Notes: generated by a model from the letters alone, not told the origin. Shown: positions 45,290 to 45,952, numbered from the stretch's first letter. The stretch is 64,000 nucleotides of DNA from Escherichia phage Eryne (PQ529420); one strand, 5' to 3'. Made by a program: numbers and translations.

Positions 45290-45952
45290 TTATTTAATAT
45301 TCAATTTTGCACAAAGACGTTGTACCGCTTTGGCATCGAACAAACTCCCACGAATAGTTCTCTTTCCTGATTCATTCAGATGTTTTGCAATCGTCATATA
45401 TGGCGTTTTACAAGCTCTGTATGCAACTAAAGAATCTTTTAAAGAAAGCGCAAACTCTTTTGAGCGTTTTGCTTCTTCCGTTTTCGTATAATCTGTTCTT
45501 TTGTATTTAGGGTTTGCTGCACCAAGAAGCGTTCCCTTCGCTTTTGCTACTTTAAGGCTCTTCTTAACACGATCAGATATTGCACGAGCCTCTTCTTCTG
45601 CCAGAACTGCTAAAATATTTATTATCATATTTTCAGCGGAGGGCATAGTTGCTATTCGTACATTAATCATCTCTAACAAGGTTGCAACAGAAGCTGTGTT
45701 ACGTCCAAGACGGTCAACCTTAGCAACAACAAGTGTAGCACCTGTTTCTTTGCAAAGATTAACAGCTTTTACAAGCTCTCTACGTTGCTTCCAATCGCCT
45801 TTACCCGAATAAAACTCTGCAAAGCTACCTACAATAGTATAATTTTCTTGTGAATCCAGGAAGCGTTGGATATCTGCTTCCTGTGATTCTATACCATACT
45901 GGTTGCCTTGTTGTTTCTTCTTAGAAAGTCGATGATACAGTACAAACTTCAT
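45290..45952 (-). CDS. serine recombinase (resolvase/invertase family)
   Basis: N-terminal YHRLSKKKQ (catalytic Ser context) and VDRLGRN motif; C-terminal HTH-like tail. Confidence 0.7.
   Translation of the reverse strand: MKFVLYHRLSKKKQQGNQYGIESQEADIQRFLDSQENYTIVGSFAEFYSGKGDWKQRRELVKAVNLCKETGATLVVAKVDRLGRNTASVATLLEMINVRIATMPSAENMIINILAVLAEEEARAISDRVKKSLKVAKAKGTLLGAANPKYKRTDYTKTEEAKRSKEFALSLKDSLVAYRACKTPYMTIAKHLNESGKRTIRGSLFDAKAVQRLCAKLNIK

Follow-up and report, generated by a model that had tools for sequence, protein, structure and literature searches.

A short serine recombinase resident in the DNA-metabolism block of phi92-like lytic phages, and what it may act upon

What does a small serine recombinase do in a phage whose genes otherwise point to a lytic life? 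The question is raised by an open reading frame (ORF) on the minus strand of Escherichia phage Eryne (PQ529420), at 45290-45952 of the stretch of 64,000 nucleotides analysed here, which is referred to below as the window. The ORF occupies exactly these positions, has an ATG start and an AGGAGG ribosome-binding site, and encodes 220 amino acids followed by a stop. It is the orthologue of Phi92_gp053, to which its protein is 100% identical, as it is to copies in about 45 phage records. The region around it is 99-99.8% identical to the phi92-like phages of E. coli (Justusliebigvirus, Stephanstirmvirinae), which are lytic myoviruses of about 147 kb. The gene itself is not new, since Phi92_gp053 is already annotated in the phi92 record, and it has been annotated in public records since the phi92 genome was published. 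What is new here is that the ‘DNA invertase’ label is unsupported, that the architecture is of a truncated large-serine-recombinase type, and that the gene belongs to an old clade with a private conserved promoter, found only in phage and metagenome sequences and having undergone one relocation and one catalytic-domain swap. The literature searched holds no experimental work on the gene, and the sole published view is an unsupported remark on concatemer resolution, according to which the Phapecoctavirus homologue keeps concatemers as single genomes (PMC10282059).

The assignment to a family can be made from several directions. The Pfam Resolvase profile PF00239 matches amino acids 4-141 (E=8.4e-22, 78.3 bits against a cutoff of 23.3), PHROG 125, named ‘DNA invertase’, matches at 1.3e-31, and the PHROG 95 ‘integrase’ profile also matches. 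In a sequence search of the PDB the resolvases Sin, Tn3 and gamma-delta were found in the range 1e-5 to 1e-4 (Sin 1.2e-05, Tn3 2.3e-05), and the Gin structures more weakly, with E = 8e-4 to 1e-3. AlphaFold2, given an alignment of 28 sequences, yields a model with a pLDDT of 87.8, and in Foldseek this model is matched to serine recombinases (Sin, gamma-delta, Bxb1, TP901-1) with a probability of 1.0. The catalytic domain with its long E-helix (amino acids 1-141; 45530-45952, minus strand) was delimited by alignment, secondary structure (E2-9 to H108-138) and Foldseek, and contains a YHRLS motif with Ser10 and a VDRLGRN motif at amino acids 79-85. Residues Y6, R8, S10, Q24, E46, G50, R57, D80, R81, R84, E121, R128 and G140 are invariant or nearly so in 28 relatives, down to 31% identity, and from a hand alignment with gamma-delta resolvase we take them to be the known catalytic set. 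The first-pass annotation of this DNA called the gene a small resolvase/invertase-type serine recombinase of about 220 amino acids, a call on which Pfam, fold and catalytic residues agree. It would have withdrawn that call had the catalytic serine been absent, and Ser10 and the motifs are conserved in 28 sequences. The protein is an intact small serine recombinase and, judging from its family, appears to be catalytically competent.

With the Tn3, gamma-delta and Sin resolvases the protein shares the catalytic fold, the size class, R8, S10, the equivalents of D67, R68 and R71, and the acidic and arginine residues of the E-helix. The likeness is distant, however, and the C-terminus is not of the 3-helix HTH_7 type. 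The gene also has neither an adjacent multi-subsite res region nor a transposon or plasmid context; its spacers of 57 bp upstream and 9 bp downstream hold no dyad that close relatives share, and it lies in a lytic-phage DNA-metabolism context. No family-level match was found in NCBIfam, where CcrB, Mpi, YneB and XisF all score far under their cutoffs, so that the recombinase falls in no named equivalog. PADLOC gave no match.

A linker and a four-helix DNA-binding domain (amino acids 150-220; 45293-45505, minus strand) were delimited from the helices of the model, PF07508 and CcrB. In the model the E-helix (amino acids 108-138) is followed by helices at 162-170, 172-180, 185-194 and 207-216. 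The PF07508 ‘Recombinase’ domain gives weak, partial matches in 19 of the 28 family members, the NCBIfam CcrB model aligns over amino acids 4-212, and Bxb1 integrase is the best Foldseek match, the alignment continuing past the catalytic domain. It is the N-terminal part of PF07508, as found in large serine recombinases, to which the C-terminal domain is related, and not the helix-turn-helix of Hin/Gin or Tn3 resolvase. The four helices, together with the PF07508, CcrB and Bxb1 matches, indicate that the recombinase resembles a large serine recombinase reduced to its catalytic domain and first DNA-binding sub-domain. Unlike Bxb1, phiC31 and CcrB it has no zinc ribbon, no coiled-coil and no rest of the recombinase domain, and with 220 amino acids it is less than half their length, which bears out the earlier judgement that it is not a large integrase. 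The short architecture of ~220 amino acids is common: a profile search of 1.84 billion representative proteins returned 897 clusters at E<=1e-30, mostly 215-240 amino acids long, the metagenome count of about 900 being one of clusters at 50% identity. To our knowledge no close relative of this short recombinase has been studied.

By tblastn the gene was found in 161 phage records, which include all 55 Justusliebigvirus matches (>=99%), Klebsiella relatives (51-78%), about 90 Phapecoctavirus records (57%) and large Vibrio, Shewanella and other phages (25-49%). Two family-specific scans of 185,579 bacterial and archaeal species genomes (GTDB) found no relative; these scans used short family-specific peptide patterns, which very distant relatives could escape. 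Four records described as ‘Campylobacter phage’ (C. jejuni), MG065639, MG065645, MG065656 and MG065689, are 98.8% identical to this E. coli phage over the 3.5 kb searched around the recombinase, with 96-98% in the early region and the tail-fibre cluster. These are probably mislabelled or contaminant genomes. Within the genus 3-5 synonymous and 0 non-synonymous differences were seen in the recombinase gene. Against the 87% identical metagenomic relative L003 its pN is 0.106 and its pS 0.81, a value at which synonymous sites are saturated, and the pN of neighbouring genes is comparable (methyltransferase 0.095, PhoH 0.139). The recombinase gene is therefore under normal purifying selection.

The neighbourhood consists of DNA-metabolism genes of a lytic type, namely a methyltransferase, an HslV-like peptidase, PhoH, a phosphatase, a DprA-like gene and ribonucleotide reductase, and no repressor or excisionase is annotated near the recombinase. 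Together with the GTDB result this agrees with the first description of the locus as a lytic-type block lacking lysogeny features. The recombinase is flanked upstream by a gp054 homologue (67 amino acids, ending ...ITTT; 46010-46213, minus strand) and downstream by a gp052 homologue (67 amino acids; 45077-45280, minus strand), and the order methyltransferase-gp055-gp054-recombinase-gp052-gp051-phosphatase is found in Justusliebigvirus, in the metagenomic L003 and L004 and in Klebsiella phage FKP3. The gene next upstream of the recombinase is a gp054 homologue in Justusliebigvirus, L003/L004, L087, L088, L090, L091, L093 and L007, an adjacency seen in at least 8 lineages and down to 39% recombinase identity. 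In Shewanella phages the recombinase lies between PhoH/HslV and DprA-like genes. The gp054-recombinase adjacency is ancient, and the recombinase is an old resident of the DNA-metabolism block in Stephanstirmvirinae and related large lytic myoviruses. The gp054 homologues (about 65 amino acids; L007, L084, L088, L090, L091 and L093) always keep a Thr-Thr-Thr-stop end, their overall identity being 29-38%. At distant viral loci (n=80) the recombinase is often beside genes for YqaJ exonuclease or PD-(D/E)XK nuclease. These neighbours were considered as a clue to the substrate and rejected, this proximity being uninformative on that point.

Three departures from this pattern were found. In Phapecoctavirus the gp054-gp052 block is intact and the recombinase is missing from it; in L084 the homologues of gp054 and gp052 are 45 nt apart, with just a hairpin spacer (18309-18353) in between. 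The Phapecoctavirus recombinase, with its promoter, is about 15 kb away, amid small early genes. Neither the filled nor the empty sites show repeats or target duplications. Between the genera the recombinase is 57% identical and the neighbouring gp054 67%, and a divergence so close to that of gp054 fits vertical descent. On this comparison of sequences we read the Phapecoctavirus case as probably a single translocation of a vertically inherited gene, not ongoing mobility. The second departure is a chimera in Klebsiella phage 05F01 (L095 1408-2079), in which the C-terminal DNA-binding domain is kept at 60% identity and the catalytic domain is a different one of the resolvase type, 35% identical with indels. 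The retention of the DNA-binding domain alongside another intact catalytic domain suggests selection for catalysis at the same target. Third, in Escherichia phage Schickermooser (L094 1390-2046) the first half of the gene has several 1-2-nt deletions, and only a 128-amino-acid fragment is annotated. This copy is either a pseudogene or a sequencing error; as the gene is apparently frameshifted, the recombinase may be dispensable.

Among the expression signals of the gene, the promoter layout is also conserved. The 57 bp between the ATG and gp054 hold a putative promoter and the ribosome-binding site, and 9 bp separate the gene from its downstream neighbour. The promoter, of sigma70 type (TTGACT-17 nt-CATACT; 45978-46006, minus strand), was predicted by a promoter scan, and 12 lineages share a TTGACA/17-nt/xAxACT layout at 55-60 nt before the ATG, wherever in the genome the gene lies. 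In L088, L090 and L007 there are terminators just upstream of the recombinase promoter. RNA folding further predicts a fold-back hairpin (45951-45989, minus strand) in which the -10 region pairs with the Shine-Dalgarno sequence and the start codon (dG -15.1 kcal/mol, z = -4.0; 0 of 200 shuffles equally stable). Comparably strong fold-backs are predicted in 4 other lineages and are absent in L003 and L082. The hairpin could form only in read-through transcripts, where it may have a regulatory role. We infer that the recombinase gene is probably insulated, with most of its translation drawing on transcripts of its own. Transposase genes, that of IS10 among them, are built in this way. Its own conserved sigma70-type promoter suggests that expression is probably early and at a low level.

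Recombination sites were searched for in the window and in the complete genome of the relative Paula (146 kb), which was joined from three pieces and compared with itself at two sensitivities. The window scan found no long inverted repeats beyond reused terminator hairpins. In Paula the inverted matches were only palindromic terminators, local palindromes, chance 18-19-mers and one ATPase paralogue pair. This complete genome has no multi-copy or inverted candidate sites, the sole multi-copy dyad being the early-region hairpin. The first-pass annotation had proposed to look for inverted crossover sites flanking an invertible segment, and such pairs are absent from the whole genome of Paula as well as from the scan of the window. 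It also held that the lack of recombination sites anywhere in the genome would count against its reading; so far they are lacking as repeated sites, and a single-copy site may still be there. The terminator hairpins AAACCCGCTTCGGCGGGTTT and AAAGGGGCTTTCGCCCCTTT are reused in many places and in both orientations (10172-10199, 37347-37374, 41722-41747; 38087-38116, 49375-49404, 61905-61934), and account for all ‘inverted repeats’ found in the genome. The paralogous ‘ATPase or Zn metalloprotease’ genes gp221 and gp190 have opposite orientations, are about 15 kb apart and are 64% identical over 509 nt (window 9028-10155; L083 42437-42945 vs L085 7866-8374).

Several individual sequences were considered as sites of the recombinase and rejected. 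The early-region hairpin GGCGGGAAACCATTTCCCGCC is present in 7 copies, all direct, and has an odd 3-nt centre; its variants keep the structure and not the sequence, and the early locus of Phapecoctavirus lacks it. A 16-bp dyad in the promoter spacer, ACTTTAACGTTAAGGT, and the dyad CCTGT-N6-ACAGG over the ribosome-binding site have one copy each in the window, and phages whose enzymes are 78-87% identical do not keep them. The 21/22-bp palindrome at 24083-24103 varies by one base at its centre among phages whose recombinases are identical, which does not agree with a 2-bp crossover. More generally, close relatives have no dyad in common in the 57-bp spacer before the gene, words of >=12 nt around the gene are not common to all four of the window, L003, L087 and L095, and no 14-mer near the recombinase gene is common with L003 and L087.

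The absence of an inverted site pair, of orientation polymorphism and of copies in bacterial genomes makes a reaction between direct repeats the most likely. Our preferred reading, which we consider possible and put forward tentatively, is that the enzyme resolves or cyclises redundant or multimeric phage DNA, joining copies of one site in direct orientation. Both substrate and reaction type were arrived at by elimination, not from positive evidence. Concatemer resolution, one of the three roles that the first-pass annotation had offered, is possible on the same grounds. If the enzyme behaves as its family does, gp053 dimers would bind a short dyad site and two such sites would synapse into a tetramer; Ser10 would then make double-strand cuts with a 2-bp stagger, forming 5’-phosphoseryl links, the subunits would rotate and the ends would be religated. 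The recombinase would be transcribed as its own unit from the sigma70-type promoter, and the fold-back hairpin would mask its ribosome-binding site in read-through transcripts. The substrate would be directly repeated copies of one site per genome unit, on terminally redundant infecting DNA or on replicating multimers, and the role would be genome cyclisation or monomerisation, functionally like that of P1 Cre-loxP. P1 has a circularly permuted, terminally redundant genome and uses Cre-loxP, with one site per genome, for cyclisation and dimer resolution. The analogy is functional only: Cre is a tyrosine recombinase, P1 is temperate, and no lox-like site was identified here. The genomes of rV5-like phages are reported to be circularly permuted (PMC3606486), and direct repeats of any single site therefore exist on redundant or concatemeric DNA.

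Cyclisation or resolution is consistent with the retained catalytic residues, the purifying selection, the 05F01 swap and the ancient adjacency to gp054, as well as with the expression signals (the promoter shared by 12 lineages, the fold-back hairpin and the terminators upstream in L088, L090 and L007). The lack of inverted or multi-copy sites in Paula and of relatives in the bacterial and archaeal genomes points the same way. Our confidence in it is nevertheless low, because the site was not found, the dyads of the upstream spacer not being conserved in close relatives, and because the need is unclear in a lytic phage, for which packaging from concatemers creates no obvious demand for monomerisation. 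The frameshifts in Schickermooser, which may make the gene dispensable, also weigh against it.

The main rival, which we consider unlikely, is a target outside the phage genome. The enzyme would act on the host chromosome, on a prophage or satellite or on a co-infecting competitor, in early takeover, anti-defence or exclusion. The sigma70-type promoter suggests expression by host RNA polymerase right after infection, which would suit such a role, as would the failure to find a site in the phage genome and the possible dispensability of the gene in one phage. However, the hosts of the family span Escherichia, Klebsiella, Vibrio and Shewanella, so a common host target would have to be very conserved, and PADLOC gave no match. 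We know of no precedent for a recombinase acting on host or competitor DNA in this way. Taking the two readings together, we may speculate that a phage- and metagenome-only clade of ~220-amino-acid ‘mini large-serine-recombinases’, core to strictly lytic large myoviruses, performs an undescribed programmed rearrangement of the lytic cycle, be it genome cyclisation or monomerisation at a hidden single site or the rearrangement of host or competitor DNA, with gp054 as a possible accessory factor. As a whole this proposal is doubtful. Knowledge of the true substrate would bring to light a step of site-specific recombination in the life of strictly lytic phages, and could give genome engineering a compact new recombinase. 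For the present, the protein is a well-conserved enzyme of a known family.

Two further explanations appear improbable, and about equally so. In the first the gene would be a cassette of its own, selfish or recently mobile, comparable to a ‘moron’ of promoter plus gene and kept by mobility and not by a function for the phage. Its own transcription unit, the empty gp054-gp052 site of Phapecoctavirus with promoter and gene about 15 kb away among early genes, the apparent pseudogene of Schickermooser and the domain swap of 05F01 could all be understood in this way. Yet there is one relocation only, set against an adjacency to gp054 held in at least 8 lineages down to 39% identity; the divergence between genera (57%, near the 67% of gp054) fits vertical descent, purifying selection is strong, and terminal repeats and target duplications are missing when filled and empty sites are compared. 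The domain order is also unlike that of IS607 transposases: the catalytic domain is N-terminal, no N-terminal MerR-like helix-turn-helix comes first, and there are no element ends. The first-pass suggestion of a small embedded mobile element is thus unsupported, given a single gene flush with its neighbours, without terminal repeats, in old synteny and relocated once.

In the second the protein would mainly be a sequence-specific DNA-binding regulator, or a dispensable relic, recombination not being its selected function. Resolvases are known to autoregulate by binding at their own promoters, and the lack of a site pair and the possible pseudogene in Schickermooser would also suit this reading. 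Against it, the catalytic residues are all conserved across the family, the catalytic domain of 05F01 has been exchanged for another intact one and not lost, and the promoter has no dyad operator conserved among close relatives.

It is more improbable still that the enzyme is a DNA invertase which flips a tail-fibre or promoter segment between inverted sites, as Hin/Gin/Cin or Mpi do. An inversion switch had been among the first suggestions for this gene, RefSeq has the same label as PHROG 125, and the phage has many tail fibres and spikes. Hin, Gin, Cin and Pin belong to the same superfamily, are phage-borne in Mu and P1 and share the public label. However, the Gin/Hin structures match at E about 1e-3, more weakly than resolvases, no inverted crossover sites, invertible segment or orientation polymorphism was found, and the inverted repeats of Paula are only palindromic terminators and a diverged paralogue pair. 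The gene is not beside tail-fibre genes, adjoins no candidate segment and has changed its position between genera. Mpi of Bacteroides and YneB-type proteins, at about 200-210 amino acids, are similar in length and align end to end in NCBIfam, so that a weak full-length likeness to the Mpi master invertase model can be claimed, but the scores are under the cutoffs (33 vs 272 bits for Mpi, 30 vs 175 bits for YneB). Mpi acts on sites distant from its own gene; here no common inverted-repeat motif flanking short phage segments was found. The tail-fibre cluster is collinear, giving one uninterrupted single-strand match in about 50 of the 55 Justusliebigvirus genomes, with the exceptions lying at record ends or having module replacements, and the relative orientation of the early, recombinase and tail-fibre regions is the same in every record compared.

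An integrase serving a hidden temperate or pseudolysogenic lifestyle is the least credible reading and is already largely refuted, since the PHROG 95 match and the kinship of the C-terminal domain with large serine integrases are set against a protein of 220 amino acids that lacks most of the recombinase domain and the zinc ribbon and coiled-coil used to tell att sites apart, with no att sites or prophages found, no relative in the 185,579 species genomes and no repressor or excisionase annotated nearby. As the enzyme appears to be neither an integrase nor a tail-fibre inversion switch, the database name ‘DNA invertase’, unsupported by these genomes, overstates what is known. This has a practical side, as phi92, phAPEC8 and their relatives are common phage-therapy candidates, and the words ‘DNA invertase/recombinase’ in an annotation are at times taken as a warning of lysogeny or of a safety problem.

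The early small-gene region at 13363-22564 (plus strand) contains at least 7 direct copies of a cassette, in which a sigma70-like promoter (TTGACA-17-TAxxxT) is directly followed by CATAGGGCGGGAAATGGTTTCCCGCC, a hairpin with a 9-bp stem. Variant cassettes carry other stems (GGGCGGCAATAGTGCCGC), and the region is highly mosaic between phages that are otherwise 97-99% identical. By analogy, these cassettes resemble the promoter-early stem-loop (PeSL) shuffling cassettes described in T4-type phages. Between the nrdB-like and nrdA-like genes, 55195-55572 has no match to phi92, which has the HNH endonuclease gp074 there, and this suggests the variable presence of a homing-endonuclease-type insert. 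At 52096-52107, 545 bp are missing relative to phi92 between two copies of a 12-bp direct repeat, GTTTTTCTTCAA. The loss fuses gp067 (dTDP-glucose 4,6-dehydratase-like) and gp066 (glucose-1-phosphate thymidylyltransferase-like) into one ORF of 436 amino acids (51716-53026), and the assembly of phage Paula breaks in the same gene; the gap is either genuine, a deletion at microhomology, or an artefact of assembly.

At 12174-12394, where the direction of transcription diverges, the window has an AT-rich sequence of about 70 nt repeated three times in tandem. Next to it, ~38 nt with Fur-box-like repeats (12417-12454) align twice to phage Paula; this suggests a difference in copy number there, and gave a false breakpoint in the database search. 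The rearrangement breakpoint that several records seemed to have at 12417 was rejected when local BLAST showed the genomes to be collinear; it arose from a 38-nt overlap of the query, that is, from tandem-repeat copy number. Further along, 23300-24980 is about 1.7 kb of AT-rich non-coding DNA (GC 0.31) with nested palindromes, including ACAATATACATGGTATATTGT at 24083-24103, whose counterpart in phage Paula is perfect over 22 nt. The phi92 record has its coordinate 1 in this region, which may be an origin or a regulatory region. Fur-box-like sequences cluster in two non-coding control regions, at 12415-12453, 23512-23585, 24463-24484 and 24661-24679, one of them perfect (AATGATAATCATTATC, 24466-24481). 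Matches with <=3 mismatches number 14, against 2.3 expected, a number reached by 0 of 100 shuffles, and the early promoters of the phage may thus be under the control of iron or Fur.
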